From Isurus oxyrinchus (taxonomy: Eukaryota): DNA of 64,000 bases. The DNA lies in NCBI GenBank assembly GCA_026770705.1, contig JANJGN010000016.1:48856001-48920000 (forward strand), given 5' to 3'. A model generated the notes under the pieces. It was not told the origin of the DNA. It ran no database searches and saw only the letters and a list, made by a program, of their open reading frames with translations. The number at the start of each line of letters is the position of its first letter. The stretch's first letter is position 1. The translations under genes and the position numbers were made by a program. Below, one piece after another: positions 30-64,000 of this stretch.

Positions 30-1130
30 GTTTTTTTATTCATTAATGCGGTGCCGCTGGCTAGGTGAGCATTTATTGCCCATCCCTAATTGCCCTTGAG
101 AACGTGGTGGTGAGCTGCTGCCTTGAACGGCTGCAGTACATGTAATGTAAGTACACCCACAGTGCTGTTAGGGTGGGAGTTCCAGGATTTTAACCCAGAC
201 ACAGTGAAGGAACAGCGATATATTTCCACGTCAGGATGGTGTGTGGCTTGGAGGGGTTATTAGAAAATTGGATCGCACAAAAACTGAGGGGTTGGGAAAT
301 AGGCCACCGCTTATAAAGAGGGAAACCAATCAAAGCACTTTTCTGTTTACGGGCTGGTGGTAAGAAGAGAAATTGATGCTATTTAAAGTAAGCCCCCTCC
401 TGCCCAAAACAAGGGGATCTTGGATGGTGTGGTAACCCTATGTGCCTAATGCCCTTTTCCTTTGTGGTGGCAGAGATCATTGTTTAAGAATTGCTCTCAA
501 ATAAGGTTTGGCGAGTTGCTGCAATCCATCTTGTAGTAGGTACACACTACAATCATTGTTCGCTGGGTGATGGAGAGAATGAATGTTTAAGGTGGTGGAT
601 AGGATGCCAATCAGATGGGCTACAATGCCATGGATGATGTTGAGCTACTTGAGTGTTGTTAGAACTGCATCCATTTGAGCAAGTGGAGAGTATTCCATCA
701 AATTTCAACCTTGTGCCTTATAGGTGGTGGGAAGGCTCTGGGGAATCAGGAATTGAGTTGTTTGTCACAGAATCCCCAGCCTCCTACTCTTGTAGACCCA
801 ATATTTATGTGCCTGGTCTAATAAAGTTTCTTGCTAGTGTTGGACTCCCCACCCAAGGTGTTGGTTGTGGTGTATTTGATGATGGTAATGCCATTGATTA
901 TCATGGGAACATGCCCAGACTCTCTTTTTTTGAAAATGATCATTACTTGAAGTTGTGTGATGCCGATGTTACTTGCCACTTATCAGGCCAAGCCTGAGTA
1001 TCAGCCAAGTCTTGTTGCATGAGAAGTCGGGCCGCTTCATTAGCTAAGGAATTGCAAATAGAAAACACCATGCAACATCCCCACTACTAAGGAAAGGCCA
1101 TTGATTATGCAGCTGAATTAGCTGGGCCTA
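30..1130 (-). mobile_element. LINE family A (CR1/L2-group, single-ORF type), 5'-truncated degenerate 3' part, with a ~155 bp unrelated insert at ~257-412
   Basis: Same 3' end as the other copies (cagcatttattgcccatccctaattgcccttgagaa on +); collinear with 32383-33350. Confidence 0.85.
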
Positions 1131-1144
1131 AGACCCTGCCTTAA

Positions 1145-1830
1145 AGAGCCTGCAGATACAGCAAGCATTTAGGAAGGCAAATGGCATTTTGGCCTTCATT
1201 GCAAGTAGATTGGAGTACAGGAATAAGGAAGTCTTGCAGCAATTGTACAGGGTGTTGGTGAGAGCACACCTAGAGTTTCGTGCACCTGGAGTATTTGGCC
1301 TCCATGTTGAAGGAAAGATATACTTGCCTTGGAGGCTGTACAATGAAAATTCACTAGATTGGTCCCAAGGGTAAGGGGGTTGTCCTATGATGAGAGGCTG
1401 AATAAATTAGGCTTACACTTCCTAGAGTTTAGTAGAATGAAAGCTGATCTCATTGAAACATACAAGATTGTGAAGGCGCTTAACAAAGGTAAAGACTGAG
1501 AGGTTGCTTCCCCTGGCAAGTGAATCTAGGAACATGTAGGCACATGCTCAGTATAAGGGGTCATTCATTTAGGACTGAGATGAGAAATTTCTTCACTCAA
1601 AGGGTTGTGAATTTTGGGAATTCTGTGCTGCAGAAGGTTGTAGATGCTCCAATCATTGAATATCTTTAAGGCTGAGTCAGATTTTTGGTGTCTCAGGGAA
1701 TTGAAGGATATGAGTGCGGACAGGAGGTGGAGGAGTTGAGCTTGAAGAACTGCCATGATCGTATTGAATGATGGAGCACGTTTGGGGCCTTATGGTCTAT
1801 TCCTGCTTCTATTTCTTATGTTCCATAACT
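1145..1830 (+). mobile_element. CR1 LINE 3' fragment
   Basis: AFIASRLEYRNKEVLQQLYRVLVRAHLE is a typical CR1 ORF2 C-terminus; ends in a CR1-type 3' tail (ctattcctgcttctatttcttatgttc). Confidence 0.85.
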
Positions 1831-6660: not shown

Positions 6661-6874
6661 CCCATGCACCCACCTTTAGCCCAAGGTACGTGGCAGTGCA
6701 GCTTTTGAAGCCAAGACAATGCAGACCAAGTTACGCTTGTGTTTCCTGTTTACAATTATATCCAGTTTATATTTTGTAGACTTGGAGATTTAGAAAGGAC
6801 ATTTTTAGAACAACAAAATTTTAGTATAAGTAACTTGATATGTACGGAAATTAAATAAGAACACATTTAATGTT

Positions 6875-8553
6875 TTTTATTCTTTCATGGGATCTGGAGG
6901 TTGCAGGCTAGGCCAGCATTAATTGCCCATCCCTACTTTCCCTTGAGAAGGTGGTGATGAGCCGCTTCTTCAGTGGCTGCAGTCTGAGGTGTACGTGCAC
7001 CCACAGTGTTGCTAGGGAGGGAGTTGCAGGATTTTGACCCAGTGACAGTGAAGGAATAGGACTTCTTGCCCCAAGTCAGGAAGTATGTAACTTGAAGGGG
7101 AACTTGCAAGGGATGATATTCCCAAGTGATAGAGGTCATGGGTTTGGAAGGTGCTATTGAAGGAGCCTTACGGAGTTGCTGCAGTGCATCTTGCAGAAGG
7201 TAATGCACCGGTGGTGGGTGGAGTGTTTAAGGTGGTGTAAGGGGTGCTGATCAAACTGACTGCTTTGTCCTGGATGGTGTTAAACTTCTCGAGTGTTTTT
7301 GGAACTGCATTCACCCAGGCAAGTGGAAAATATTCTATCAAAGTATTCTATCTGACTTGTGCTTTGTAAATGGTGGACATGCCTTGGGGAGGCAGGAAGC
7401 CAGTTACTCACTACAGAATTCCCAGCCTCTGACCTGCTGTTGTAGCCACAGTATTCATGCCTGGTCAATGTTAATCCCCCAGGATGTTAATGGTGGGGAA
7501 TTCGCCAATAGTAATGTCATTGAATGTCAAGAGGAGGTGGTTGGATTTTCTCATGTTGGAGATGGCTATTGCCTAGCACTTATATTGCATGAATGTTACT
7601 TGCCAGCCCAAGCCTGAATGTTGTCCAGTCTTCCTCGATGAGGACACAGATTGCTTTGATATCTGAGGACTTTTAAATGGGATTGAATGCTCTGCAATCA
7701 TCATTGAATGTCCCTGCATCTGACCATGTGATGGAGGGAAGGTCATTGATGAAGTAGTTGAAGATGGTTGAGCCGAGAACACTGGCCTGTGAAACTCTGC
7801 AGCAATGTTGAGGGATTGAGATGATTGGCCTCCAACAACCGCAACCACCTTCCTTTGTGGTAGGTGTGTCTAAAATCAAAGGGGAGTTTTCCCCCGATTC
7901 CCATTGACCTCAATTTCACCAGGGCTGCTTGGTGCCACATCATGTAAAATGCTGTCAAGAACAGTCACACTCTCATCACCTCTGGAATTCTACTCTTTTG
8001 CCACTGTTTGAAACAAAGCTATAATGAGGCCTGGAGTAGAGTGGCATGGTGGAACCCAAGGTTATTCCTGAGTATGTGCCACTTCACAGCACTGTCGACT
8101 ACGGCTTCCATTACTTTGGTTGAGAGTAGACTGATGGGACTGTAATTGGGTCAACTGGGCAACATGTGCCTTTGTTGTTAGTTCTTGCAGTTGCCAGGTG
8201 GACCGTCTGACTTTATTATTTGACTTTCCTGTAGCTATTTAATATAACCAAGTGGCTTGCTCGGCCATTTCAGAGGGCACTAGAGTCAACCATATTGCCG
8301 TGGTCTGAAATTACACACAGGCAAGACTGGGAAAGGACAGCAGATTTCCTTCCCTGAATGGCATTAGTGACTAGATGGCTTTTAACGATAGTCTAATAGT
8401 TTCATGATCATACTGATATTAGTTTTTTATTCAAAATTTATTGAGTTTGAATTCCTCAGCTGTTGTGGAAGGATTCGAACTCATGTCTCTGGAATATTGG
8501 CCCAGGCTTCCAGATTACTAGTCCAGTAACGTTACCATTATGCTATCATTCCC
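6875..8553 (-). mobile_element. LINE family A copy with a large internal deletion (junction ~8160) that retains the tRNA-derived 5' head
   Basis: RT fragment ASVLGSTIFNYFINDLPS...FNDDC. A box TAGCATAATGG (8535-8545, -) and B box GAGTTCGAATCC (8471-8482, -). 8165-8553 is collinear with 54100-54488. Confidence 0.85.
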
Positions 8554-11939: not shown

Positions 11940-12612
11940 CAGTTCAGTTATCATTGACCAGAAACTGAGCTGGATTAGCCATATAAATACTGTGTCTTCA
12001 AGAGCAGATCAGAGGCTGGGAATCTTGTGACGAATAACTCACCTCCTGACTCCCCAAAGCCTGTCCACCATCTACAAGGTACAAGTTAAAAGTGTGATGG
12101 AATACTTTGCACCTGCCTGGATGAGTGCAACTCCCACAACACTCAAGAAGCTTGATATCATTGAGGACAAAGCAGCCTGCTTCATTGACACCACGTCCAC
12201 ATTTACTCTCTCCACCACTGATGGACAGTGGCAGCAGTGTATACCATCTACAGGATGCACTGCAAGACTTTACCAAGGCTCCTTAGACAGCACCTTCCAA
12301 GCCCATGACCACTACCACCTAGAAGGACATGGGCAGCCAATAGATGGGAGCACCGTGACCTGGAAGTTCGCCTCCAAGTCACTCACCATCCAGACTTGGA
12401 AATATACCACTGTTCCTTCACTGTTGTTGGGTCAAAATCCTGAAACTCCCTTCCTATCTGCACTGTGGGCATACCTACACCACATGGACTGCAGCAGTTC
12501 AAGAAGGCAGCTCATCACCACCACCACCACCTCAAGGGCAACTAGGGATGGGCAATATATGCTGGCCTAGCTAGTGAAGCTCACATCCTGTAAATGAAAT
12601 GAATAAAAAAAA
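11940..12612 (+). mobile_element. LINE family A 3' fragment
   Basis: MMEYFAPAWMSATPTTLKKLDIIEDKAACFI; ends gctcacatcctgtaaatgaaatgaataaaaaaaa. Confidence 0.85.
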
Positions 12613-12834
12613 ATCTGGAACATCCTCCCTGGACAAGGGAGATGAGAAAGAAAATTAACTACATATTTAAGTAACCGCACGATAGTCAAGCCTACTGAAT
12701 TACACTTTCCAGAAATATCATAGTGGAATATAACCCAAAATACCATTTAGCAATATACTTTGCAATCAAATTACAATTTAACATGTTCAATTATTGTAAA
12801 AGGACAATCCCAATAATATATTGTACATCTGTCA

Positions 12835-13320
12835 GAGATAGCTTTGAAGGAACATTTAAAGGAAAAGTAATCTCAAGTTTAGACCTAGACAACTGAAGAC
12901 ACAGTTACCAGTGGAGGAGCAGTGAAAATCAAGAACGTTAACGAGGCCAGTATTGGAGGACCGCAGAGATTTCTGAGGGTTTGTATGGCTGAACAGCATC
13001 AGAGATATGGATGGATTTGAATACAAGGATGAGCATTTTTAAAATGTAGGCATTGCCAGCCTGGCAGCCACTATGGATCAGTGAACACAGGGATGATAAG
13101 TGAATGGAATTTTATCCAAGTTAAGATATGGACAACATAGTTTTGGATGAACTGAAGTTTACAGAGCGTGGAAGATGAGGCACCAACTGGAAAGGCATTG
13201 GAGTGGTCAAACCCAGAGGTAACAATGGAATGAATGAGAGTTTCAACAGAAGATGAGTTAAGGCAGGGTTGGTAAGGAGTGATATTATGGAAGTGGAGGC
13301 AGATGGGCTTGGGGTGATTT
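12835..13320 (-). mobile_element. L2 LINE 3' fragment
   Basis: Degenerate L2 ORF2 C-terminus (LKLSFIPLLPLGLTTPMPFQLV..), homologous to 58200-58430 and 28940-29320. Confidence 0.65.
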
Positions 13321-14980: not shown

Positions 14981-15019
14981 AGTTGACGTTTCGAGTCTTC
15001 ACGACCCTTCAACAGAACT
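14981..15019 (-). ncRNA. Minimal type I hammerhead-like ribozyme motif in PLE pseudo-LTR
   Basis: - strand AGUU CUGUUGA A GGGUC gugaa GACUC GAAA CGUC AACU: stem I AGUU/AACU, stem II GGGUC/GACUC, GUC cleavage triplet. Confidence 0.7.
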
Positions 15020-17042: not shown

Positions 17043-17081
17043 AGTTCTGTTAAAGAGTCATGAGGACTCGAAACATCAACT
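17043..17081 (+). ncRNA. Degenerate hammerhead motif in PLE pseudo-LTR
   Basis: AGUU CUGUUAA A GAGUC augag GACUC GAAA CAUC AACU; G8 and the stem III palindrome are mutated. Confidence 0.5.
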
Positions 17082-32382: not shown

Positions 32383-33590
32383 TTTTTTTATTCATTCATG
32401 GGATGTGGGCTTCGCTGGCTGGGCCAGCATTTATTGCCCATCCCTAGATGCCCTTGAGAAGGTGGTGGTGAGCTGCCTCCTTGAACCCACTGCAGTCCAT
32501 GTGTTGTAGGTATACCCACACTGCTGTTAGGAAAGGAGTTCCAGGTTTTTGACCTAGTGACAGTGAAAGAACGGCAATATATTTCCAAGTCAGGATGATG
32601 AATGACTTGGAGGGGAACTTCCAGGTGGTGGTGTTCCCATCTATCTGCTGTCCTTGTCCTTCTAGTTGGTAGTGATTGTGAGTTTGGAAGGTGCTGTCTA
32701 AGGAGCCTTGGTGAATTCCTGCAGTGCATCTTGTAGATGGTACACACTGTTGCTACTGTGCGTCGGTGGTGGAAGGAACAAATGTTTGTGGACGTGATGC
32801 CAATCAAGCAGACTGCTTTGTCCTAGACGGTATCCAGCTTCTTCAGTGTTGTAGGAGCCGTTCTCATCCAGGCAAATGGAGGGTATTCCATCACACTCCT
32901 GACTTGTGCCTTGTGGATAGTGGACAGGCTTTGGAGAGTCAGGAGGTGAGTTACTCATTACATGATTCCTAGCCTCTGACCTGCTTTTGTAGCCACTGTA
33001 TTTATATGGCTAGTCCAGTTCAGTTTCTGGTTAATGGTAACCCCCAGGATGTTGATAGTGGGGGATTCAATGATGGTAATGCCAATGAGCATCAAGGGGT
33101 GATGGTTGGACTCTCTCTTGTTGGAGATGGTCATTGCCTGACCAGTGGTGCAAATGTTACTTGCCACTTGTCAGCCCAAGCCTGGACATTGTCCAGGTCT
33201 TGCTGCATTTGGACATGGACTGCTTCAGTACCTGAGGAGTTGCGAATGGCGCTGAACGTTGCGCAATCATCAGTGAACATCCCCACTTCTGACCTTATGA
33301 AGGAAGGAAGGTCATTGATGAAGCAGCTGAAGATGGTTGGGCCTGGGACTCTACCCTGAGGAACTCCTGCAGTGATGTCCTGGAGCTGGGGTGACTGACC
33401 TCCAACAACCACAACCATCTTTCTTTATGCTAGGTATGACTCCAACCAGTGGAGAATTTTCCCCCGATTCCCATTGGCTCTAGTTTTGCTAGGGTTCCTT
33501 GATGCCACACTCGGTTAAATGCTGCCTTGATGTCAAGGACAGTCACTCTCACCTCACCCTGGGATTCAGCTCTTTTGTCCATGTTTTCTG
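32383..33590 (-). mobile_element. LINE family A, 5'-truncated, well preserved RT and 3' end
   Basis: VLDIKAAFNRVWHQG; AGVPQGRVPGPTIFSCFINDLPS..MFTDDC..DLDNVQAWADKWQ; tail ccatgaatgaataaaaaaa. Confidence 0.92.
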
Positions 33591-34117: not shown

Positions 34118-34670
34118 TGGGTTGAATATTCCTGACCCATTTGTAATGGGCTGGGAGATGGAAGGACTTGCAAAATGGCCATTGAGTGGTTAATTGAGCC
34201 ATTTAAGTGGCCAATTAAGGGCTATTTTGCCCAGGCTAGGAGGGCCCACACTGCAGAGGAACTAGGCAGTAGTGGCACCCTTTGAAACTAGGCAGCTTCC
34301 ATGCAGGCTGTGTGGTAGGGAGGGGAAGATGGGAGCTCCTATATAGGCGCCCCATGGTCCATGGAGGGGCCCCCAGCCAGCACCAGCTGCCCATGTGATA
34401 ACTGTCCTGCTGGTGCTCTATAATCCCCATCCCACCATGGTCACTCTGGCTTCCCCCAACCTACCTCAACTCTTTTCGAGAGCACCAGGCAATGACCATC
34501 TTCAACAGGAGAGTATCTAACCATCTCACCTTGACATTCATGGTATCGCCATCACCTCCATGGTATTACCATCACATCACCTCCATCTTCTCAAGGGGAC
34601 TTGAGAATGGACAGCAAATGCTGCCCTTGCCAGTAACATCCACATCCCATTAAATAATACAAAAAAAGAT
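34118..34670. mobile_element. Harbinger-type MITE fragment (~34118-34470) followed by an internally deleted LINE-A piece (+, ~34480-34668)
   Basis: Starts GGGTTGAATATTCC (TIR-like). The second part joins caggcaatgaccatc..ccttgacattc directly to the LINE-A tail (cttctcaagggg..catccacatcccatt). Confidence 0.5.
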
Positions 34671-35564
34671 TTATATTATTACTTCCTATTTATGTCATAA
34701 TAGATTGTTCTTTTTGGTAATTCCAAAGATTTTTTCATTAAAATTTGAATTATGTCATAATTAGGGTTAAAGAATGTAAATAATCCTACCATTGGAAATT
34801 AGGGCTCAATAAAAGTTGGACCTATAAGATGATTTTAAAAAAGATAAGCACTAATTTCTAAACAGTTTTGGAAACTCCATTTTTAAATCACCACTTTGCT
34901 TAATTCAAGTTATTGGATAATTCACATTTTTAGGATGAAGAATGAGTTCAAATCATCAGGATCCTACCAGTATAAAGAAGGAAGCAGGTTAACATCTAGA
35001 TTTGTGACCTTTTATTTGCCCTTTTGAAGTAGTTGAGAAAGTTTTCTACTGTAAATATATATGCTGAAGTATACATTACATTTTGTTTTAAAATTATATT
35101 TAATATATTTGTTTAAAAGTTTGAAACTGGACCAAGGTCCAGTGTGATATTCCATTGTTTGTTAAGGACAGGAAATTGATTTGTGGAAGCATAACAGTAA
35201 TTCCAAACCACACTATTATCCCATTTTACTTAGATAGTTGGCTAGTGAAGTGACTTTTGAAGGCGCAAGAAGTGAGGACTCCCCCATGAAGATGCTCTAA
35301 TATTTCCAAACCAAACAAACCTGGAGTAAAAGAAAGTAGAAAAGAACCAAAGCCTATACATATTCTGGCCCTGTTCCTTTGGAAGATAACTAATTAAATG
35401 ATTTCATACAGTCATACTTGGGTGTTTCCTGTTGTGGTGGCTTGACTACTTCAACCTGTCAATTGTCACTTACATCAAGGGTGACCACTTCACCTTCCCT
35501 GTCCTCCATCCCTTCTGAATAATTGCTTGTACTCTTATAAGGGATACTCCGTTCCATTGACCTT

Positions 35565-37230: not shown

Positions 37231-37411
37231 CATGTCTGTGATTCCTTCAACATCTTAGCATAGACTCAATTTCATTTCACTGCCATTTCAGTAAAATGTA
37301 GTTCACCATTTCTGGGTTCAGCAACCCAATCTATTATCCTGTAAAAGGATGTTAGGAAATCTAGTTCCTTCCTTTATTGAAGTTTACATGGTTACCCAGT
37401 AAACACCAGTG

Positions 37412-42632: not shown

Positions 42633-43865
42633 AAAAAAAAAAATTCTTTCACAGGATATAGGTATCATTGGCTAGGTCACCATTAATTACCCATCCCTAA
42701 CTGCCCTTGAGAAGGAGGTGATGAACTGTTACCTTGAGCCTCTGCGGTGTAGGTGCATCCACAATGCCGTAAGACAGGGGGTTCCATGATTTTGACCTAG
42801 TAACAGTGAAGGAACGACAATATAGTTTCAAGTCAGGATGGTGTGTGACTTGAAGGAGAACTCACAGATGGTTGTGTTCCCATGCATCTGCTGCCTCTTT
42901 GTCCTACATGGTAGGAGTCGTGGGTTGGAAGGTGCTGTCGAAGCGATGGTGAGTTGCTGCAGTGCATCTTGTATATGGTACACACTGCTGCCACAGTGTG
43001 TTGGCACTAGAGGGAATTGCTGTTTAAGGTGGTGGATGGAGCACCAATCAAGCAGGCTGCTTTGACTTGGATGCTGTTGAGTTCCTTGAGTGTATTTGGA
43101 GCTGCACTCATCCAGGCAAGTGGAGAGTATTCCATCACACTCCTTACTTGTGGCTTGTAAATTGCGGACAAGCTTTGAGGAGTCGGGAGGTGAGTTACTC
43201 GTTGCAGAATTCCCAGCCTCTGTTATATGGCTGGTCTATTTCAATTTCTTGTCAGTGGTTCCCACCAGGATGTTGTTAGTGGCAGATTCAGAATTTGGTA
43301 ATGCCATTTAATGTCAAAATGAGATGATTAGATCCTGTCTTGTTGGAGATGGTCACTGCCTGGCACTTATGTGGCGTGGATGTTACTTGCCATTTATTAG
43401 CCCTAGATTGAATGTTGTCCAGATCTTGCTGACTGCTTCAATGTCTGAGAAACTGTAAATGGTGCTGAACATTGTGCAATCATCAGTGAACATCCCCATT
43501 TCTGATCATGATGGAGAGAAGATAATTGATGAAGCAACTAAAGATGATTGGGCCTAGGACACTACCCTGAGGAACTCCTGCAGCAATGTCCAGGGACTAT
43601 CATAATTGACCTCCAGTATACACAACCATCTTTCTCTGTGCAAGGCATGACTAACCAGCAGAGAGTCCCCCCCCCACCCCCAGATTTCCATTTACTTCAG
43701 TTTTGCTTAGGCTCCTTGATGCCTCACGGTCATTGCTGCCTTAATGTCAAGGATAGTCACCCTCACCTCCCCTCTGTAGCTCAGCTCTTTTGCCCATTTT
43801 TTGGATCAAGGCTGTAATGAAGTCAGGAGCTGAGTGGCCCTGGTGGAGCCCAAATTGTGTGTCAG
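42633..43865 (-). mobile_element. LINE family A, 5'-truncated
   Basis: TQFGLHQGHSAPDFITALIQ; collinear with 51293-52540; same 3' end as other copies. Confidence 0.88.
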
Positions 43866-46800
43866 TTAAATAGTATACTAAACAAATAGAGTGAGATTGC
43901 ACTAGGTGGTTCATAGAGTAAGACACTGGCACAGATTTGATGGGCCAAACGGTCTGTTTCTGTGCTGCAGTATTAAATGATTTATCTCCACTCAATGCAA
44001 AAATTGTTTGCTAATGTATTTTTAGTTTCCTTTTGAATGTGAAATAGCATTCAATTTTGAATGCCTTTGCAATAGTTTGACCTGAAAAAATGGCATTTAC
44101 TTTTTAAACTCTTGAGGACTGCATGCATTTAAAAATAATGACATTTTTCATGATCTTGGCCACCATTAGGAACACACACTTGTTTCAATATTTTCCTTTG
44201 TTTTGTCATAAACATGGTTTAATAATATCATTTTAGAAATTAAAATGTTGGCAAACACTTATAAGATTCTGAAATTCTTAAGTCTCTAATGGTCAACTGA
44301 AATTTTGATTATTGTGTATTTAACTAAGGCCCCCATATCCTGATTAATGTGGCATTGTAAGGATCTTAGAGTGGCATGTCATGACTAATTATTTTACTGA
44401 TGTATTTTATTGGTAGCTAGTGTTTCATAAGTAAGGGGCATCTCCTGATGTGAAAATCAAAATCCACTTTGTACCAATTCCTCAGTGAAAGCTTAAATGC
44501 TAAGTTGAAGTTAAAGCATTTACATGCCATTCAACTGAATCTGAAATCTGAGAAATCTAAGCCACTTATGATTACTGTTTCACCTGTTGATTAAATTAAC
44601 AAATTTTGAGTTTTTAAAAAATGTGAATTATTGTAGTGTGACTATTACTGTAATAATCCTGTTTTGCGATATGCACTTGACAGATTGTAATAGTGCTAAT
44701 TGAACAGATTAATTCACACTTGCTTCATTCTATTCAAAGAGAGAATCGGTAGCTTGTTTTGCTTTTGACCAGATGGTACTGATGAACACCTACTGTGCAC
44801 TTTAAGTGCTTACTAGAATTACAAAGACAGATCTGTGTTGAGCTCAAAATGGTTGAGAAAGCTGCATTGAATAGATTTTGTGCAACTAAATTAATTCTGG
44901 TGGACCATTACACATTGAGCTGTCTTTTCAAAGCTCTGAGCTCCTTGTTTGCTCTGCAGCAATGAAAAAGTGAAAGGCAGATTACAGCAAACAGAAATAA
45001 AAGTGCTATGAAAGGGAGAAGAAGCCTTAAAGCCTTTTATATGGAATTTGTTTTAAGTGCATTATTTGTGTGCATAAATGGGAAGCCATTTCAGATTTGT
45101 TTTTAAGTGCACTATTTGAGATTTATGAATATGAAAACAACAGCAACATTTAGTAACAGTTGGTTGAATTTATGTCCATAAACTAGAACATCTTTATTTT
45201 AATTTTAGCTCTCAATTTATTCCCATTTCAAACTACTTTTTAAGCAATTTTATAGCTCATACATGCAAATAAATAGAATATATTAAATTTGCTTCCAGCT
45301 TACTAAATTTAAAATCTACTCTTGATTTTGTGCCTTGACCAGAAGTATGTAGGTTTTGGTGCTAAATATAAAATATTGTAGCCTCCCCCCCTCCCCGCTG
45401 TATTACCCTGCCAACCATCCCCATTATAGCAACTTGTCGAAATTTGCTAAAGCTCCCCATGTAGGGAAATTCGGGGATACACTTTAGCTTAGTTTAGGGT
45501 TTGCACTTGAATTTCCTAGCTTTGAACCTAGCACTGTACTGTAATTGTTGGCAGTCTCGATGATGTATTTAGAAGGCAATAAATCTAATGTAAGGAAAAT
45601 ATGTGCTAAACCTTGGACAAAAGACTGACATTGACTGTCTTACCCCTTATCATTGTCTTTTCCAGAGCACAATTGGGAAGTATGTGATATACTAAGGGGT
45701 GGAGAGTGAGTTGGAGTGGTGACCTACCAAGAGAGGGGTAGAATTGGAGAAAAGTTGATTTGTGTACCAGTACTTGCTTATGCTTAAGTTCATGATTACA
45801 TACACTTTTGGTGATTACATGAACACATCAAGATGGGGACTCAAATTTGTCTTCCTGTTTCAAGTCCTTTAATCAAGCATTACAATCAACAGGGTTAAAG
45901 GATTTGGTATTTTACATCAAGAAAATATTCTTCACAGCATAATTTAAAATTAATACTGCCTTAAGCAAGATTTTCCAAAAGGATTATGTTTTAAATAAAC
46001 ATCTCTGAATTTGTCAGTTTCATCTCGTGCTCTTGATAGGGTGATTCCAGATGTTCATTGTTTCAAATATAAATATTTAAATTTTGTGGTATGTTCAGTA
46101 TTGTTTAGCATTTGCAAAATTGTTAAATGAAAATCTATCTCAATCAAACAGTGTTATAATTAAGCACAACTTTATTGTAAAACCAGGGAAAAATATATTA
46201 CAATAATGGGAACTATTGTGCACATAGAGGTCACACTAATCTAAATGGCGGTTTAACAGCTTGTTCATTTGTTTGGTGATAAATACTGCAAAAAACCCTA
46301 GCTGCAATTTAAATGAAGAATAGTAGTCTTGATACTGAGTTTCCTGTAATTTATTGATCCAGAGCAGCAAAATAGTGATTAGCAAGTACAGTCCCACCAA
46401 GCATTTAAACATTTTTTCTGACTGTTTGACCTATTCACATTTAATATGAGCAACAGTAAGCTCAGTGCAAATGTTTGCAAATTGTGGCAGAAATTATGCC
46501 TGGTCGAGTTGCAGGTCCGTGACTAGACGGGAGAGACTGAGGATTTTGTTGGGGTTTTTACAGCTGCAAAAAAAAAAGCATGTGTTCTTAGAATGGCAAT
46601 CTTTGTTTAGTTTTGACACTGACTTTCTTTTTCATACCCAGCAATGGATTAGGTACAACCAAGATGAGATTCATTTATGTTACCCCATTGCAGCTGTTCA
46701 GACATAGGCACAAAAGCTTAAGAACAGCAAGCATAGTTCACACAAGAATCTTTGTATGGAGGTCTCCTTGTTTGCTTTGGATGGCTCTTCTGAGCACTGC

Positions 46801-51292: not shown

Positions 51293-54200
51293 CTTTATTC
51301 ATTTGTGGGATGTGGGCAACGCTGGCTAGGACAGCATTTATTGCCCATCCCTAGTTGCTCTTGAGAAAGTGGTGGGCAGCTGCCTTCTTGAACCGCTGCA
51401 GTCCCTGTGGTGTTCGGGAGGGAGTTCCAGGATTTTGATCCAGTGACAGTGAAGGAACGGTGATATATTTCCAAGTTAGGATGGTGAAGGGCTTGGAGTG
51501 GAGCTCCAGGTGGTGGTGTTCCCATGTATCTGCTGCCCTTGATCTTCTAGATGGCAGCAGTCATGGACTTGGAAGGCTCTTCCCAAGGAATCTTGGTGGG
51601 TTTCTGCAGTGCATCTTGTAGATGGTACACTACTGCCACTGTGCATTGGTGGTGGAGGAAGTGAATGTTTGTGGATGGGGTGCCAATCAAGCGGGCTGCT
51701 TTGTCCTGGTTTGTGTCAAGTGTTTGAGTATTGTTGGAGCAGCACTCATCCAGGCAAGTGGAGAGTATTCCATCACACTCCTGACTTGTGCCTTGTAGAT
51801 AGTAGACAGGCTTTAGGGAGTCAGGTGGTGAGTTACTCGTTGCAGGACTCCTAGCCTCTGACCTGCTTTTCTAACCACAGTATTTATACGGCTAGTCCAG
51901 TTCAGTTTCTGGTCAATGGCAACCCCCAGGATGTTGATAGTGGGGGGATTCAGCGATGGTAATTCCATTGAATGTCAAGGGGCAATGATTAGGTTAACTC
52001 TTGTTGGACGTGGTCATTGCCTGGCACTTGTGTAGCGTGAAAGTTACTTTCCACATGTCAGCCCAAGCCTGGATGTTGTCCGGGTCTTCCTACATTTGGA
52101 CATGGACTGTTTCAGTATCTGAGGAGTTGCGAATGATGCTGAACATTGCACAATCATCAGCGAACATCCCCACTTCTGACCTTATAATGGAAGGTAGGTC
52201 ATTGATGAAGCAGCTAAAGATGGTTGGGGCCAGAACATTACCCTGAGGAACTCCTGCAATGAGATCCTGGAACTGAGATGATTGACCTCCAAGAACCACA
52301 AACATCTTCCTTTGCACTCGAAATGACTCCATCCAGCGGAGCGTTTTCCCCCGATTCCAATTGACTCCAGTTTTGCTAGGGCTTCTTGATGCCACACTCA
52401 GTCAAATGCTGCCTTAATGTCAAGGGCAGTCACTCTCATCTCACCTCTGGAGTTCTGCTCTTCTGTCCATGTTTGAACCAAGGCTGTACTGAGGTCAGAA
52501 ACTGACTGACCCTGGTGGAACCCAAACTGAGTTTCAGTGAGCAGGTTATTGCTAAGCAAGTGCCACTTGATAGTACAGTTGATGACCGCTTCCATCACTT
52601 TACCGATGATTGAGAGTAGACTGATGGAGCAGTAATTGGCCAGATTGGACTTGCCCTGCTTTTTGTGTACAGGACATACCTGGGCAATTTTCCACAATAG
52701 TGGGTAGATGCCAGTGTTGTAGCTGTACTGAAACAGCTTGGCGAGGGGTGTGGCAATTTCTGGAGCACAAGCCTATAGTGCTATTGACAAAATACTGTCT
52801 TGGCCTCTTGTCTTTGCAGTATTCTGTGCCTTTAGCCATTTCTTGATATCACGTGGAGCGGTTCGAATTGGCTGAAAACTGGCACCAGTGATGCTGGGGA
52901 CCTCTGGAGGAGATCGAGATGGATCATCCACTCCGTACTCCTGGCCAATAATTGTTGCAAATGCTTCAGCCTTGCCTTTTGCACTGCTGTGCTGGGCTCC
53001 TCCATCATTGAGGATGGGGATACCAGTGGAGCCTCCTCCTCGAGAGAATTGTTTAATTGTCCACCATCATTTATGACTGGATGTGGCAGGACAGCAGAAC
53101 TTAGATCTGATCCATTGGTTGTGGGATCGCTTAGCTCTGTCTATCACTTTCTGCTTATGCTGTTTGACACGCAAGTAATCCTATGTTGTAGCTTCTTCAC
53201 CAGGTTGAGACCTAATTTTTAGGCATGCCTGGTGCTGCTCCTGGAATGCCCTCCTGCACTCTTCATTGAGCCAGGGTTGATCCCCTGGCTTGGTAGCATT
53301 CAAAGTGGGGGATGCACCGCTCCATGAGGTTACAGATTGTGGTTAGGTTCTGCTGCTGCTGATGGCCCACAGCACCTCACGGGTGCCCTGTATTGAATTG
53401 CTAGATCTGTTTGAAATCTATCCCATTTAGCACAGTGACAGTGCCACACAACCCAATGTGAAGATGGCACTTCATCTCCACAAGGACTGTGCAGTGATCA
53501 CTCCTATCAATACTATTGTGGGCAGATGCATCTGTAGCAGGCAGGTTGGTGAAGGTGAGGTTAAATATATTTTTCCCTCTTGTTGAATCTCTTACCACCT
53601 GACTCAGTCCAGCAGCTATGTTATTTAGGATTCACCAGCTCGGTCAGTAGTGATGCTCACGACCCACTCTTGGTGATGGACATTGAAGAACCCCCACCCA
53701 GTGTTCACTCTTGCCACCCTCAGTTCTTCCTCCAAGTGGTATTCAACATGGAGAAGCACTGATTCGTCAGCTGAGGGGGTGGGGTGGTACGTGATAATCG
53801 GCAGGAGGTTTTCTTGCCCATGTTTGACTTGATGCCATAGACTTAATGGGCTGATGTTGAGGACTCCCAGGGCAACACCCTCCCGACTGTACACCACGGT
53901 GCTGCCACCTCTGCTGGGTCTGTTCTTTGGTGAGACAGGATATTCCCAGGGATGGTGATGGTGATGCCTGGGGCATTATCTGTAAGGTATGATTCCGTGA
54001 GTATGACTGTGTCAGGCTGTTGCTTGGCTAGTCTGTGAGACAGCTCTCCCAAGCCCACCGTTGTTAATAAGGAGGACTGTGTAGGGCCGAGGGGACTGGG
54101 TTTGCCACTGTTGTTTCCGGTGCCTAGATTGATGCCAGGTGGTAGGTCTGGTTTCATTCCTTTTTATTGACTTCTTAACAGCTTGATACAACTGAGTGGC

Positions 54201-54488
54201 CATTTTGGAGGACATTTAACAGTCAACCACGTTACTGCACCTGTGGAGTAGCATGTTGGACAGACTAGGTGACGGTGGCTGATTTCCTTCCTTAAAGAGC
54301 TTATTGAACCAGATGAGTTTTTAGGACAATCGACAATGCTTTCATGGTCATCATTAGACTTTTAATTTCTGATTTTTTTATTGAATTCAAATTCCACTAT
54401 TTGCTGTGGTGGGATTCAAACCTGGGCCCCCAGAGCTTTACCCTGGGTCTCTGGATCACCAGTCCATTGACAATACCGCTGCCTCCTC
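51293..54488 (-). mobile_element. Apparently full-length (~3.2 kb) LINE family A: tRNA-derived head, single disrupted APE-RT ORF, 3' tail
   Basis: ATG at 54157: MKPD..VGLGELSHRLAKQQPDTVILTESYL (APE N-terminus); SDH (DRSDHC); WKIAQVCPVHKK..ALDIKAAFD; GVPQGNVLAPTIFSCFINDL..MFADDC; B box GGTTTGAATCCC at 54411-54422 (-). Confidence 0.92.
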
Positions 54489-54491
54489 TTG

Positions 54492-57400
54492 AGGCCGGAA
54501 TTTTCCACCTCCATTGGTGTCAGGTGTCATGGCAGGTGCGAACGGGCAATATGGTGAGAAGGCAAAAATCGGTTTCAGAACATCGTGAAACCATTTTGTG
54601 ATCGTCCGCTCCACCTGTCAGTGGCAGGCTGCCTTTCCTGCCATGGCAAGCCTGGAATATCATTTTAATAAATCTGCATATAATTATAAGCCTAGCTCAC
54701 CAGAACCAACTCCCTCCACAATGGACCACGTTTTCATGTCGGTGGGAAAACATGCTGGCCAAAACACATCTTGACCAAGTGTGACATGCAGAAGCCGGGA
54801 CTTAGCGTTAGAGCCTTGCTCACATCACAGACATCCGAGGAGCAGAAGATGCCAGAGTCCTGGAGGACACGTGCATCAAATGCTGGGTGGATTTATAGGA
54901 ACATGGCTCCTCCATGAAGTAGCTCACGGAAGGTGGAAGGTCACCGTTGATGTCTGGGGTCTGCTTCGGTGCATCAGGGTCTTGGTGCTATGGATGATTG
55001 TTGAGGGGGTGGAGAGGAAGGTCTCGGTTCCTCTGTGAGAGGAAGGTGTGCTGGGGGGAGGGCAATGATGGTGTCGGGGGTTGAGGTTGGGAGGGAAAAC
55101 GATGCTGTTGACATGGTTGGGTTGGGAGTATGGGGGGAGGAGCATGTAATGGGAGAATGCAGCAACTGAGGTGGTAGGTGTAAGGGGCGAGGAAGGAGTA
55201 AGTGAAGGAATTTGGAGGGGGCAAGATTCTGGAGGGGAAGAAGGAGTCTCGGGGGTTGGTGGGGGGAGGCAGGAGCAGATGGAATAAGGGGCAGAGGGGA
55301 TGTCCAGGTTGACATGTAAGGGAGGGATCTGTGGAGTTGATGATTGCCTCCTGGGGAGCAAATGGAGGGTGGGTGTGGTAGGAGGGCAAAGTGAGCTGGG
55401 AGGGTGAGGGCGCAATGGAACAGTAGAAAGGACGGTGAGGGCAGTTGGTGGGGACTCTGAGGCAGACACGGACCCTGAGGTGGGAAAGAGGAGGTTTAAG
55501 AGGCCAATGTGGATGGGATGAGGTTCTCGGGAAGATCGGGAATGTACACATTCACCTGAACATCCTGGATAGAAAAGGGTTCTGGTTGGTTGGTTACGGT
55601 GGGGAGATGGAAAGTAAGGCCAGGACGGATCAACAGTGATGGGAGAAAGGACGTGGGTGACTGGGGGAGGAGAAATGACAGGGAAGGTGGAAACATACTT
55701 TACAATCACCATGCTTATGAAATTGAAAGTGAGAGGAGCCTTGTGTTAGGTGGGAACCGGTGCTGCTTGGGAGTTCAATCAGTGGGTGGGCAGACACACA
55801 GAACAGTTCAGATGGACAACTGAAAGAGAACCCCAGCGGGCAGCATTGCAAATGCTCGGGACATTGAGATGAGTGTGATGGAGGAAGGATCCATGTGTGT
55901 GGGAGAATTCTTGTACGAGGGTCCGAAAAGTCCTGCCCCACGCGCACGGACATAGACACACACACATAGACACACACCCCTCTAAAATCGCTTCTGGTCC
56001 GGCTGCGTGCACCTGAACAGTTGGTGGGGTGGGATGTAGGGGGATTGCTTGCAAAGTCTAAATGAAGCTGAAAGACATCATTTCATATTACTTAGTGACA
56101 GTGAATATATTTACAGATTATAAAGTGACAAAATGTGTTCACCCATGCAGCCATGTGATCAGAAATTCTTAACTTCCCAGGCCTACCACTTCTAAGTGCT
56201 GCCCTGACATCTGCAGCAGGGGTGGAGACAGCTTGTGCAATGGTTTTCTCTGATGACCTTGGCATGGGCCCTCTGGAGAGCTGAGGTCTTGAGGGCCACA
56301 GCTTGCTTTGGCTGTCCTCCTGTGGGCCAGCTGCTTCCTCTGCGGTGACAAAGGATGAGGTTGAGGGGGTCACAGGCAAAGGGAACTGGGAGGGAGAGGA
56401 TAGCTTTTGAGATTGCTAAGTGGATGACCCAGGTGTGAGAACTACTGCTCCTCCTCCCTTTGGATGCCTGAGGGTTCCAGCCTGGCTTCTTGAGGGGGAG
56501 GAGCACCTAGAGGGATGTCAAAGTGCCCCATTACCCCCTCACTTTGCCACTACAGGAACTCGCCCATTGCTGCCGTGATGGATTGCAAGACTGCACATAT
56601 CTCCACGTTCTGCTGGACCAGGGTCTGCATGACATCTACCACTTCATCAGAGAGCAGGTGGATGCACTCCTCTGACTTGCGTGCCACTCTGTTGAGGGTT
56701 TCCACAGCTCTGCATGATGTTCCACTGCCTTCTGCTGATTCTCCACGATGAGTTAGAAGACCGAATCCAAAGGCTCGTCATCTGACTCTGACTTCATAGA
56801 TGTCTCTTCCCCAGCAGCCCTCTGAGTGTCGGGGAGCTTGGCTGAACCTGCTTCCTCCTCTGTTGCAGACGTATGTCTGTGCGGTGACCACCAGCTTGTG
56901 AACCCGAGCCTGCTCTAGATCTAGGTTACACCGAAGTGCGTCCCTGTGCTGATGGAGGGTGTGGGTAAGCACTGTAGCAGGATTTCCAGGCTGCTTATTT
57001 CCAGCTCTTCAGTGGAGGAGTTGTCCTCTTCGTTGGGAGTGCGGACCTGGATGGAGCTGAGGGACTGGCTGGCTGAGGGTGTTGGTCGCTTGGCAGAGTT
57101 CCCTGTGAACAAAAGTAGAGATAATGAGTGTAAGGCAGCAGAATCAAAAGCAGGAGGGATAGAGCACTCACAGTTGCGCTGAGAGAGAGATGATGTGGTG
57201 CAGGATCCTCATGTGGGTATTTGCCACCAGCCTCACTGTCACTACAGGCATGCTCCATGTCCTTACCAATCAGCATGATGGCACGCTCCTCAAAGTGAGT
57301 GAGGGGCCCAATGTGGGCCACTCCACCTCTGGCCTGGGATCTCTTCCTGCTGCTGTGAGCCAGCTTCTCCTGCATGAAAACAGATGGAGAGTGTGAGCAT

Positions 57401-58107
57401 GATGCATGGCATTGTGTGGAATGTTTGTGTGGTGAATGGGGCCATAGATGGGATGAGTATGTGAGCTCCAGAGGATATGATGGAGATGTGTGGGTGTGTG
57501 AGAGAGTTAGTGGTGCTGACTCTTGAGGTGTGAGGTGGATGTGTGATGGATTTGAATGTGTGAGTTGAGAGTGATGAGAAGAGTGACTTACTCTGCTGGA
57601 ACGGATGGGAGCATTCATCTTCCTCCTGCACTGGATGGCTGTCCTCTTTTGTAGGGCATGGGCACTAACCACTGCTGCCACTGTGTCCCATGTTGGATTG
57701 ATGACTTTGCTTGCTCGTCTTCCCCCAGAGCCGGGGGGAATACCTTGCGGCCGGCCTCTACTGCGTCCAGTAGGTGCTTGAAGGAGGTGTTGCTAAATCT
57801 GGGGGCAGTATGTTTCCTCCCTTTGGCAGCCATCAGTTCCCAGCACCTTCCTATCCCTTGAGTGCTAGCTCTGTGCAGGGGCGGCCTTTGAATATGGTGC
57901 CCGGTTTACTGAAGGCCTTAGGTGACGGTGGGCAGGTGAATTGGAGGCTGTGACGCCAGCAATTCAGCATGCTTCCTGGGAATACATAATTAATGAGGTG
58001 GGAATGGAAAGATATGGCGTGAAAAGCCGCAATTGTGGCCAACAGGTAAAATGTCCTTTTTCTCACCCGCTACCACTCTTAGTGCAAATCTGAGGCAATT
58101 CCACCCC
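54492..58107 (-). mobile_element. PIF/Harbinger-type DNA transposon derivative carrying the Myb/SANT gene; no recognisable transposase
   Basis: Imperfect TIRs AGGCCGGAATT (54492) / AATTCCACCCC (58107); contains a Myb/SANT-like gene; TSD not evident. Confidence 0.7.
56170..57833 (-). pseudogene. Harbinger-associated Myb/SANT (trihelix-like) DNA-binding gene, 3 exons, frameshifted
   Basis: Exon 1 57833-57592: MAAKGRKHTAPRFSNTSFKHLLDAVEAGRKVF..(frameshift)..MAAVVSAHALQKRTAIQCRRKMN, donor GTAAGT. Exon 2 57369-57172: EKLAHSSRKRSQARGG..PLTHFEER, CAG acceptor and GTGAGT donor. Exon 3 from 57102 is low-complexity and ends near ALRSGRPGKLR. Confidence 0.78.
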
Positions 58108-58429: not shown

Positions 58430-59046
58430 GTGGATGCAAGTCTGAACTCCGAGCTTATGGTCAGAGACTTTGGCCAGATATGTGGGACATACCCAGATAT
58501 TTATCCAGGAAACGTTATGCTAGTTAATACCTGGTCTAATTCACCAGTGTAACTGAACTGAGCACCACAACTGATCCCCCTCACCGACACTCTCTGCCAC
58601 AACTCCCCCCAACCCAGCTGCCCAACCCACCTGTCCATTCGACCAGGCACCCCCACCCGACCTGACTACCTACCCCAACTCAACCACCCCCCCCACCTGA
58701 CCTTATGACGCGCCTGACCTAACAATATCCCCATCCTCTCTGCCTGCTCAACCTGACTGCTTGCACATTTGTCTACTTACACGCTCACTTGTATTCATTA
58801 AAAGACTTGAGACCATTAAAAATTTACCTGAATATGGCAGCTAGTCCAATGAAAAAAGGGTGTGTCCCCTTCTTTGATTTTCCTGCGCTCGCTGGACTTA
58901 CCCTGGAAAGGCTGAATTGACCCATTCCTGCTTCAGCTGGGATTGGAAAGTCCTGGCTGAAAATGGGTAGCTCTGTCGGGACATACACAACATTGTTTGC
59001 AGTGACAGCCTGCCCAACATTGCTGCTGACTGGAAGATCTGGGCCA
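58430..59046. mobile_element. MITE-like DNA element fragment in L2
   Basis: Ends GGAAGATCTGGGCC (TIR-like); C-rich internal tract; interrupts L2. Confidence 0.45.
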
Positions 59047-59564
59047 ATGATTTTGGTCTTTTCAATATTTAGTTGAGGGAAATTTTTGTTCATTCAGTGC
59101 TAAACATCAAGCAAGTTGTCTGATAATTTAAAGACAATGGAGTGTTTGAGGAGATAGTAATGAGATAGAGCTGGGTGTCATCAGGGTACGTGTAGACGCT
59201 GACTGTGTTTTCTGTGTCACACAGAGGCAGCTTGCAAATGAAATGCAGAAGGGTGCTAAGGATAGACCCTGGGGGATACCTGAGGTAATGGTATGAGAGT
59301 AGGAAGAGAAGACATTGCAGGTAATTATATAGCTGTGGCTGGATAGATAAGAATGGAACAAAGCAAATGCACTCCCACCCAGCTGGATAATGGTAGGAGG
59401 GCATTGAACGAGGATGTTGTGGTCATCTGTGTCAAAAGCAGCAGATAGGTTTAAAAAAAAAACACGAGAAGGGAAAGCTTACCTTTGCCACAGTCATGAA
59501 GGATGTAATTGGTCATTTTGATAGCAGTTTGAGGCACAGAAACTTGATTGGAAGGATTCAAACA

Positions 59565-60155
59565 TTGGCCTGAATTTTGCAGTCAGCAGCTTGCCATTGG
59601 CCATGAAAAAAGCTCCCCATAAAGATCATGCAATCTCTGCAGTGCAGTCTTCCCCATTCCAGACAGCAGTGTAAATTTGGTGCCAAGTCAAGGGGATTTC
59701 CAGGCATGCAGCAGGAATGATGTCAGCAGCCAATCACATTGAAGTATTCTCACAGACAGCAAACCAGGATGTTAAAAGCACTTAATCCTTCCATTTTAAT
59801 TTAAATTTTCAGAAAATGAAATCAGTTGATTGGATTTAGAATCTAAAATATTAATATAAACAAATTTAAAGTTTATAGATTTTTTAAATCATAATGGAGA
59901 AAATTTACATTCCATAAATATAAAATTAGCCTTTTCGGGCCATTGACTGTGCTTAGCAGTAATTATGAAGTACGCCATTAAAAACCCAGTTACACTCTAT
60001 CCAACAAGATAATTTTTTCAAGAGTTTTTAAAGCAAGGCAAACAGTGTACAATGGAAGTTCTTGCCAATTCATAGATGTTTCACTGATTGCAGTCAAGGT
60101 GGACCTTAACAGTGCATTCTCTGGACAAGCATAGAATCACAGACAGCAACTTCTT
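59565..60155. mobile_element. MITE-like DNA element fragment in L2
   Basis: Starts GGCCTGAATTTT, similar to the Harbinger TIR at 54492; interrupts L2. Confidence 0.45.
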
Positions 60156-60672: not shown

Positions 60673-61759
60673 TTTTTTAATATAGGTTCCAGGAAAAAAT
60701 TCAGGTGGTTAGCAGATTAGTAGGAATAAGGTTAAGGGAACAGAATGTGGGCCTTGTAGACAAGATGAGCTTGGAAAGAGCATTGAGGGGATTGGGATGA
60801 AGCAAGAAAGATGCAAGTTCATGCTAGTAGTGCAGGGGCAAACTTTAAGAGGAAGTTTGAACTGGTTTGTTAGGGGGAAGGAAATCACAGGTAGCTGGTC
60901 AGATGGCCTCAACCTTAGTGACAAAGAAGTCAATTAGCTCCTCTTACTTGTTTGAGTTGGGACTGGAAGAGACGGGGAAAAGGATTTAAGAAGACAGTTG
61001 CCCTCTTGACATTGCAGGATGATCCCGGAATAGTGAGCAGTTTGGGCAGACAAAACAGGGCCCAGAAGCACTTTATATATTTCAACCAGATATGTAGATG
61101 TTAAAGTTTATGTCCCTTGAACTTATGGCAGTAGAGATGAGGTTTGTACCCAGGGGAATGGTCATGGTGGGATGACTAATGTTTTTATTGGGGGCCAGGG
61201 CATCAGAGGTGGAGGTGAGGGTATGGTTGAGCAGATTAGCTACAGAAATTTCATGATGAATGGAGGGGCTACAGGCTAGACAGTTGGAATTTTAAGGGTA
61301 CAATTGCTAATGAATTGGGAGAGCATTGTTTTTCTGGGGTGGACACAAAAGGATGTGGGTTCAGATGGCAAAGGGGGATATTTGTGGAGGGCAATACAAG
61401 GATGTGATCAAAAATTACCTTACCTGACGCTATGGAAACAGTGAGGCCATGTGAGCTGGCAAGTTGAAGCTGTGAATAAGGATTGAGAAGTTTTTTCTGG
61501 AGGGAGAGATTAAGGGAGGATAGAAGGTTTGTGAATTCAAAGGAGAGAAAGCATAATAAATTGAGATAAGCATTTGAAGTCACTGGGGATGAGAAGCCAC
61601 TTAGTGCAGAGGCTGAGGGAGGAAAGCAGTGGGTATATCTCAATGAGAGAATCTTTAGGATAAAGACAAAACAAAACTGCGGATGCTGGAAATCCAAAAC
61701 AAAAACAGAATTACCTGGAAAAACTCAGCAGGTCTGGCAGCATCGGCGGAGAAGAAAAG

Positions 61760-61798
61760 AGTTGACGTTTCGAGTCTTCATGACCCTTCGACAGAACT
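61760..61798 (-). ncRNA. Minimal hammerhead-like motif
   Basis: - strand AGUU CUGUCGA A GGGUC augaa GACUC GAAA CGUC AACU. Confidence 0.7.
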
Positions 61799-62679
61799 TG
61801 ATTTCGAGTCCAGGAAAGAGTTGAAATATAAGCTGGTTTAAGGTGTGTGTGTGTGGGGGGGGGGGGGGGGGGGGGGGAGAGACAGAGGTGCTTGTGTAGA
61901 CAAACAAGCAGTGATAGAAGCAGATCATCAAAAGATGTCAGTGACAATGGGACAAAAGAACACATAGGTGTTAAAGTTGGTGATATTATCTAAACGAATG
62001 TGCTAATTAAGAATGGATGGTAGGGCACTCAAGGTACAGCTCTAGTGGGGGTGGGGGGAGCATAAAAGATTTTAAAATATTTAAAAATAATGGAAATAGG
62101 TGGGAAAAGAAAAATCTATAAAATTTATAGGGGAAAAAAAGGGGGAAAAAAGGGGGGAAACAGAAAGGGGGTGGGGATAGGGGAGGGAGCTCACGACCTA
62201 AAGTTATTGAATTCAATATTCAGACCGGCCTTCCGGTCTGAATATTGAATTCAATAACTTTAGGTCGTGAGCTCCCTCCCCTATCCCCACCCCCTTTCTG
62301 TTTCCCCCCTTTTTTTCCCCTTTTTTTTCCCTATAAATTTTATAGATTTTTCTTTTCCCACCTATTTCCATTATTTTTAAATATTTTAAAATCTTTTATG
62401 CTCCCCCCACCCCCACTAGAGCTGTACCTTGAGTGCCCTACCATCCATTCTTAATTAGCACATTCGTTTAGATAATATCACCAACTTTAACTTTAACACC
62501 TATGTGTTCTTTTGTCCCATTGTCACTGACATCTTTTGATGATCTGCTTCTATCACTGCTTGTTTGTCTACACAAGCACCTCTGTCTCTCTCTCTCTCTC
62601 TCCCCCACCCCCCCCCCCCCCCCCCACACACACACCTTAAACCAGCTTATATTTCAACTCTTTCCTGGACTCGAAATCA

Positions 62680-62718
62680 AGTTCTGTCGAAGGGTCATGA
62701 AGACTCGAAACGTCAACT
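62680..62718 (+). ncRNA. Minimal hammerhead-like motif
   Basis: AGUU CUGUCGA A GGGUC augaa GACUC GAAA CGUC AACU; predicted cleavage after C62714. Confidence 0.7.
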
Positions 62719-64000
62719 CTTTTCTTCTCCGCCGATGCTGCCAGACCTGCTGAGTTTTTCCAGGTAATTCTGTTTTTGTTTTGAATCTTTAGGGTACTTG
62801 GGCGGACAGTGGAGGATGAGGATTTTAAATAAGAGGGGAGTATGGAAACGATGGATAAGTGATTCTGCTATTTCATCATTGCTTCTATATTCATTGCAGG
62901 CAGGCAGAGAAAGTTCTAGCTGTCATTGCTGGTACCTGAAGTTTGACCCAGTTTTTTTTAGGGAGACACAGATGTGGCTGGTTAATCATTGCATAAATCA
63001 CATAATTGGTTGGATCATGGTGATTTGGGAATGAACACACTGTTTTTCAAAATTTGTTTTGAATCACATGTAACGGAAATAAAACTGTTAAAGGAAGATA
63101 TTCAGACAACTGAATAAAAGTACTCTAAACTTCAGCACTCCAAGCTTCCCCATAACTGTGAAATGGTGCGGAAATGTAGTTTTGATTGGTGAGCACATTT
63201 TTTTAAATGCTTCTAATGTTAAAAATCATTAAAATGAGTATTTGGATAAATGGAAAATGTCAATTCCTTCACCAGAGAAAGTGAAGTTTCTTGAAATAAA
63301 TTTGATGCTGGTCAGGAAGCTATGATAATGTTATTGGAATTTATTGTAAAATAGTAGTATCTGTGTCTATATGTGTGTGTGTGTGTGGGGGGGGCGGTGG
63401 GGGGGACTTGGAATTAAAGGCAGCTGGTCTGAAAACTTTGATGTATCAGAAGATAAGCTAGGTTTGAAATGTTGAATAGGTAAACATGGGGGAAGTTTTA
63501 GAATGTGAGGTAATGGGAACATCTGCATTTTTAAATAAACCAGACTAATTTGAATTCAAAAAGAGGGAGTAAAATGTTTTACCTAGTCAGGAGAAGTTAA
63601 GCAGTGTGTTTATTTTTCCCAAAGATTACTGGTAAAATTGGTATTGTGATAGATTTTATTATTAGAGAGGTGAAGTCCAAAGACATATTGAAACAATGGG
63701 AATTTGCATTCAATGGGGAAAATATGTATAAAGGAGTGAAGGCTGTGTGTAAGGATAGGCATTCTAAGATCTAACATGTGAAAAGCCTTTAGCATCTACG
63801 CCTCAAGTTGCTGTCCACAGAGTACTGAAGTTAAGGAAACTTACTTTGAATTGGATTGTTCAAGGTATCATGTTTCTTTGCCTGGGTTTTTAAAAATCTG
63901 TGTCTTACTGTTGCCTTATGGAGGTGTAACTGGGCGTCAGATTAATTAGGGGATTTAAAAGTTACTATAGTAGTAATTTATAGGCATTATATATGTGCTT

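Follow-up and report, generated by a model that had tools for sequence, protein, structure and literature searches.

The elasmobranch CR1-Zenon LINE begins with a tRNA-like head, possibly used as a Pol III promoter

LINEs are usually transcribed by Pol II and code for protein, while SINEs are transcribed by Pol III and are non-coding. The minus strand of positions 51293-54490 of the window (the whole 64-kb stretch of shark DNA analysed here) carries a retroposon of ~3.2 kb, copy A, in which a tRNA-like head and a body are followed by an APE domain, an RT domain and a 3' tail. How did a head of the SINE type come to stand in front of a protein-coding LINE, and what might it do there? Its sequence identifies the element as a CR1-Zenon LINE of the elasmobranch family. 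The reading we favour, with a probability of roughly 0.6, is that the Zenon of sharks and rays acquired a head of tRNA origin in their common ancestor and is transcribed from that head by Pol III.

The order of parts in copy A, proposed in an earlier note on this DNA, holds up, with a profile built from 17 full-length relatives spanning 54052-51357 and Pfam RVT_1 matching at E=1.9e-12. All parts are read on the minus strand. The head (54405..54490), which by eye corresponds to the start of the CarCar and ScyCan Zenon-1 consensuses, contains a damaged A box (~54476-54483), an anticodon-like stem-loop (54451-54467), a long variable-arm hairpin (54429-54447) and a B box that carries a C>T change (54412-54422). 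It is followed by a conserved non-coding body or 5' UTR (54204..54404), in which several short frames open from upstream ATGs and which is seen by eye in 7/7 elasmobranch Zenon consensuses as well. Then come a basic leader with the first APE strand, in a frame open from an ATG at 54203 (54060..54203), the frameshifted APE endonuclease domain, recognised by profile matches (53467..54059), and the RT with the C-terminal region, recognised by Pfam RVT_1, the profile and tblastn and broken by stops and frameshifts (51357..53300). The 3' UTR (51293..51356), common to other copies, consists of a stem-loop (fold z -2.71; 2/200 shuffles equally good), AATAAA and a short A tail.

With 9 stops, counted over 11 best-frame segments chosen by hand, and ~10 frame changes, copy A is dead, and the autonomy that had been claimed is not supported for this copy. 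Its APE is 57-73% identical to the family fragments P0010-P0014; the Pfam endonuclease gave no match on copy A's own pieces and weak matches on P0010 and P0013. Among the protein search matches there was no intact full-length family protein, the close relatives (58-70% identity) being fragments, and a Heptranchias gene model contains pieces of this element at ~60% identity. Searching the PDB with the element protein returned a single weak RT match. In a quick RT tree of 72 rows, with no named references, copy A groups with P0016/P0017 (support 100), separate from the best protein matches of the other LINEs in the window. As a separate observation, the in-frame segments of copy A within 51740-54157 use TAT for tyrosine 0 times and TAC 12 times, a bias that exceeds that of the other NNT/NNC pairs.

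The stretch 5' of the copy A ORF is ~330 nt long and therefore holds no ORF1, as had been claimed. An ORF1 further upstream of the head was considered and is ruled out by the profile, by a six-frame Pfam search of the ~3 kb upstream of copy A (no family at E<=0.1) and by the comparison of flanks described below. What does not stand is the implication that this lack is unusual: the available text of PMC13343379 states that Zenon has a poly-A tail and 'universally lacked ORF1', which makes a single ORF the normal condition in this clade. Hagfish, coelacanth and Lepidoptera Zenon share both traits with our element. Canonical CR1, which in the same text has an esterase ORF1 or descends from ORF1-bearing relatives, was rejected as an identity for an element without ORF1.

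The start of this ORF is less firmly placed. The ATG at 54157 had been said to enter the APE domain directly, and its frame does reach APE, but probably only through an ~11-nt deletion near 54060 that appears private to copy A and joins the two. That frame differs from the one holding the first APE strand, which the multiple alignment identifies as TVLLINN in copy A (KVLLTNIW in the family), in a frame open back to the ATG at 54203/54215; the match of this alternative leader frame is visible in the multiple alignment only, pairwise BLASTP against P0010 giving none. In the stingray consensus, the sole one showing both points, the ATG equivalent to 54157 is by eye also out of frame. Three consensuses have an upstream in-frame ATG followed two codons on by TAG, where copy B, a second copy in the window, has GAG, and homopolymer errors in the consensuses may possibly affect how the start codon is read. 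P0011/P0012 start MAE, and in P0010 the 54157-type frame runs continuously into APE. Gene models from other loci open with the translated body (P0010) or with the leader (P0011 and P0014), and each continues into APE. On these alignments, ATG 54157 is not the sure start of the ORF.

Seven loci of the Zenon family lie within the window, differing by 12-24% from the majority of the others. LINE target-primed reverse transcription often yields 5' truncation, and five of the seven loci are 5'-truncated: copy D (32387..33586, minus strand, 82% to copy A), copy C (11947..12619, plus strand), copy E (42643..43866, minus strand), copy F (31..1154, minus strand, in two aligned pieces) and copy G, a short fragment with an RT piece and tail (34485..34674, plus strand). 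Their 3' ends are of the poly-A kind and not a microsatellite: in B, C, D and F, AATAAA precedes runs of A, copy A has only AAA, and E ends in a T run. The two copies that reach the 5' end, A and B, both start with the head (2/2). Copy B (6873..8553, minus strand) belongs to an older subfamily and by eye resembles the SquAca (dogfish) consensuses, copy A resembling the white-shark and catshark type. It has an intact A box (8535-8545), a B box (8471-8482) and the body, and is not full length, in that an internal deletion joins the APE start to the RT region and leaves it without the equivalent of copy A 54074-52639. At this junction (8137-8149), copy B is a headed, internally deleted Zenon and has the structure of a long SINE/SIDE intermediate.

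Across head and body, copies A and B are 60.8% identical over 418 columns (E=8e-20), which bears out the claim of a diverged second copy with the same head and linker. The head also ends at the equivalent position in both, as claimed: homology stops at its 5' end, and the 500-nt upstream flanks share only chance matches of <=13 nt. The earlier note had further proposed to test whether full-length copies begin at the head and are enclosed by TSDs; in the window the two copies that reach the 5' end begin there, and no exact repeat >6 nt was found around A or B, copies that are old, with another insertion apparently abutting the head of A. In neither copy was a TSD seen to enclose head plus ORF, which is what could be said for a headless LINE having inserted, by chance or by targeting, behind a separate SINE. 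Such a neighbour effect is nevertheless largely refuted, and we hold it to be very improbable, given the identical junction in two diverged copies, in 7/7 consensuses and in independent gene models, tails with no SINE remainder found downstream, and no convincing solo head within the 64 kb. A possible third head or body at 34182-34276 (E 0.079) was unconvincing once aligned, and 13171-13259 (E 0.82) was unconvincing too.

The insertion next to the head of copy A is GC-rich and extends over 54493-~58107, with a weak Myb/SANT-like match (PF13837, E 0.043) at 56995-57789 on the minus strand. We presume that it may be a Harbinger-type DNA transposon, with ends not confirmed as inverted repeats. 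Nearby, 31-nt inverted arms at 59022-59052 and 59560-59590, 81% complementary and 507 nt apart, may mark a small DNA-transposon derivative.

Whether the head belongs to the family at large was examined in the Zenon consensuses of the PMC13343379 supplement, where 10-mers derived from the window match the CarCar and ScyCan Zenon-1 consensuses. Comparing by eye the first 400 nt of each consensus used, we found that those of elasmobranchs start at this head and body in 7/7 cases from five species, against 0/3 in hagfish and coelacanth. The headed set, of 2886-3314 nt, comprises white shark (CarCar_Zenon-1), catshark (ScyCan_Zenon-1), whale shark (RhiTyp_Zenon-1), stingray (HypSab_Zenon-1) and three from dogfish (SquAca_Zenon-1/2/3), and the headless set two hagfish and one coelacanth consensus which, unlike our element, have no tRNA head at their start. 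Because the head stands at the start of all seven elasmobranch consensuses, it is a family trait, in agreement with the claim that it is part of the element and no chance SINE neighbour. These comparisons, like the gene models above, support the view that this LINE family, which codes for protein, inherits the head as a built-in part of its 5' end. In length (2.9-3.3 kb), single APE-RT ORF and A tail, the consensuses show no structural difference from the element. According to the available part of PMC13343379, Zenon makes up ~6.8% of the white and whale shark genomes, 4.4% of that of the dogfish, ~0.7% in two batoids and 0.02% in a chimaera; near-full-length copies number in the hundreds to thousands, with intact ORFs in 0/2313, 1/1419 and 3/612.

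How tRNA-like is the head? A pattern with both boxes, A and B, spaced as in a tRNA matched once in the window, in copy B, against 0/100 shuffles, and the canonical boxes claimed for that copy are thus confirmed; a TGGC variant of the pattern had 0 matches in the window. By eye, the A and B boxes are recognisable in the elasmobranch Zenon consensuses, in which the acceptor stem is not kept. ARAGORN found 0 tRNA genes in the window and a whole-window Rfam scan no tRNA; given the heads alone, the Rfam tRNA model aligned to 8466-8552 of copy B with 13.9 bits (E=3; cut-off 29 bits) and had no match on copy A. By minimum free energy, neither head folds better than its shuffles do (z 0.51 and 0.23). 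Of the stems of the head, the anticodon-like one is 90% paired; pairing is poor in the acceptor and T stems. The variable-arm hairpin has two compensatory pairs between A and B, from two sequences only, whose covariation over the head fails a shuffle control (244/500) and outdoes all slid versions on cells paired. The head may resemble a long-variable-arm tRNA of the Leu/Ser type. Searching phage records with head B by blastn, to name the tRNA, gave two unannotated chance matches.

The suggested kinship of the body with the Meta domain was not borne out. Two motifs from the bivalve Meta alignments excerpted from PMC4824008 matched the window six times and not at all, and neither body held any of these matches (0/6 and 0/0); a MetaSINE, with its 66-bp Meta domain right after the head, was therefore rejected. 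The UCON3 alignments in the available part of PMC7245038 have only a 10-mer in common with the body. Separately, the stretch after the B box (54390-54411 in A; 8450-8470 in B) is by eye loosely like the stretch that follows the B box in the hagfish SINE2-2C_EBu of the same source, a possible lead to the donor.

Against transcription by Pol III stand the sub-threshold scores of the heads under tRNA models and the lack of a visible TSD. The head might instead have been captured once and now act as RNA structure, protecting the 5' end, guiding release from host transcripts by processing or recruiting ribosomes, or else belong to a Pol II promoter, with no role for Pol III. The hairpin pairing kept between subfamilies would be needless for a purely DNA-level promoter, the body is conserved as well as the head (62%, or 118/190, versus 55% between A and B), and some LINEs set their 5' ends by RNA processing with ribozymes, as the accessible text of PMC5786205 relates. 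By eye, however, the consensuses keep the A and B boxes and not the acceptor stem that RNase P needs, and we regard this alternative as improbable. It also does not predict a depletion specific to T, the pattern to which we now turn, although avoidance of U tracts for Pol II reasons such as splicing or 3' processing could mimic it.

Pol III terminates at runs of at least four T, and a Pol III unit of 3.2 kb must therefore avoid such runs. In the aligned 3' halves of six copies, none of the six T4+ runs is common to more than one copy (0/6), against 42/57 of the other runs (A 17/24, C 13/17, G 12/16). At the two T4 runs in the single-copy part of copy A, most family proteins have residues that imply other bases. 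Pooled over Zenon, the observed/expected ratios on the sense strand are 0.70 for T3, 0.49 for T4 and 0 for T5 (0 against 4.2 expected); a slight deficit is also seen on the antisense strand (0.78). As controls, seven fragments of other LINEs, probably mostly canonical CR1 (1132-1651, 3122-3669, 13755-14340, 17134-17439, 26201-27251, 35695-37188 and 59150-59522), gave 1.01, 0.97 and 0.75, and two Penelope fragments 0.98, 0.84 and 0. Shuffling with amino acids and codon pool held fixed left Zenon depleted, with T3 at 29 against 40.8 expected (P 0.0015) and T4 at 4 against 8.3 (P 0.042), P values that are optimistic because related, non-independent copies were pooled. Under the same shuffle, A, C and G runs of Zenon are as expected and the other LINEs are not depleted (T3 53 against 57.8; T4 14 against 16.1). 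The majority sequence alone has 0 T4 against 2.1 (P 0.10) and 3 T3 against 9.5 (P 0.009). With dinucleotide shuffles as the reference, C4 and G4 runs fall below expectation as well (P 0.043 and 0.003). By eye, T4 is absent from the first 400 nt of all seven headed consensuses in the supplement (0/7) and present in the three headless ones (3/3). Avoidance of T runs lends indirect, though specific, support to a SINE-type Pol III promoter in the head.

The Penelope-like elements of the window deserve mention in their own right. Those at 14937-17182 and 37408-38647 have a piece of a GIY-YIG ORF (E 0.0007) and repeated terminal segments, and 61659-62786 is an almost perfect palindrome with its centre at ~62230, formed where two ends of a Penelope-like repeat stand head to head, because of which spurious Rfam miRNA matches arise.

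Taking these lines together, we propose that a Zenon LINE that already had a single ORF exchanged its 5' end, in an ancestor of sharks and rays, for a SINE-type head of tRNA origin together with the body; template switching is the probable route. The head would most likely be an internal type-2 (A box/B box) Pol III promoter giving an RNA of ~3.2 kb from nucleotide 1, so that every full-length insertion would bring its own promoter, and selection may have kept the sense strand clear of TTTT terminators. The APE-RT protein would then bind the 3' stem-loop and A tail and copy the RNA by target-primed reverse transcription. In the Alu/L1 system, Pol III transcripts retrotranspose without ORF1 (PMC2666806, available text). 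Pol III RNAs are also uncapped (same source), and translation of the 950-aa ORF is therefore the weak link; it would need cap-independent or otherwise non-canonical initiation and is the least certain step of the proposal.

Labour could be divided instead, Pol III making the template RNA, as in a giant SINE, and the protein, acting partly in trans, being made from a small share of RNAs that are capped Pol II products or host read-through. This would account for both the avoidance of T runs and the capping problem; internally deleted headed copies do exist (copy B and the shorter SquAca-2 and -3 consensuses), and intact ORFs are as rare as the counts from the PMC13343379 text given above. Such rarity is also expected from age, however, and the full ORF is still linked to the head across sharks and rays, which favours use in cis; we consider this arrangement unlikely.

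Several known systems come close to the element. tRNA-derived SINEs (SINE2; in sharks HE1, SacSINE1 and CmiSINEs) share with it a tRNA head that bears A and B boxes, the body behind it and a 3' tail of LINE type; both boxes are present in copy B and degenerate in copy A. SINE2 elements are short and non-coding, and at 3.2 kb with an APE-RT the element does not belong among them. By their descriptions in the available parts of PMC4824008, PMC5499810 and PMC3747384, the named shark SINEs have V, Deu or CORE bodies and HER1, CR1-like or L2 tails. The SIDE Persaeus (PMC6740152, in part) is an internally deleted derivative, like copy B, and includes a Zenon 5' UTR, but unlike our element is described there as having neither tRNA homology nor a Pol III promoter. 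A passing precedent comes from RTE-1_DAn and relatives, LINEs with a 'tRNA-like sequence' matching many SINE2, which belong to a different clade from Zenon (PMC5786205, available text). In chimeras of tRNA or other small RNAs with L1 (PMC13174262), a small RNA likewise became fused to the 5' side of a LINE when recombination occurred in reverse transcription; unlike the element, the tRNA/L1 chimeras are one-off insertions (21 tRNA cases), mostly with antisense tRNA halves, and form no propagating family.

The words 'tRNA' and 'promoter' occur 0 times in the main text of the Zenon paper (PMC13343379) and its preprint, so the head was deposited but not described there, and the available part of a whale-shark preprint names CR1-Zenon without detail. 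In the open literature surveyed, mostly as titles and the starts of abstracts, neither a tRNA-headed Zenon nor a Pol III-driven coding LINE family was described. The tRNA-like head is a real and family-wide feature, apparently unremarked, of a recently catalogued LINE.

That the element is a SINE-LINE hybrid grown to ~7% of some shark genomes we put forward tentatively, as something we would not quite bet on, and it can be tested directly on published Zenon consensuses. If the proposal is true, a family that retains a head of the Pol III type along with its complete APE-RT ORF, amounting to 4-7% of shark genomes, would break the division between LINEs and SINEs and would show translation of a long Pol III RNA occurring in nature. 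It would also be a possible intermediate in the origin of SINEs, as a single internal deletion like that of copy B makes a ready-made SINE of it.
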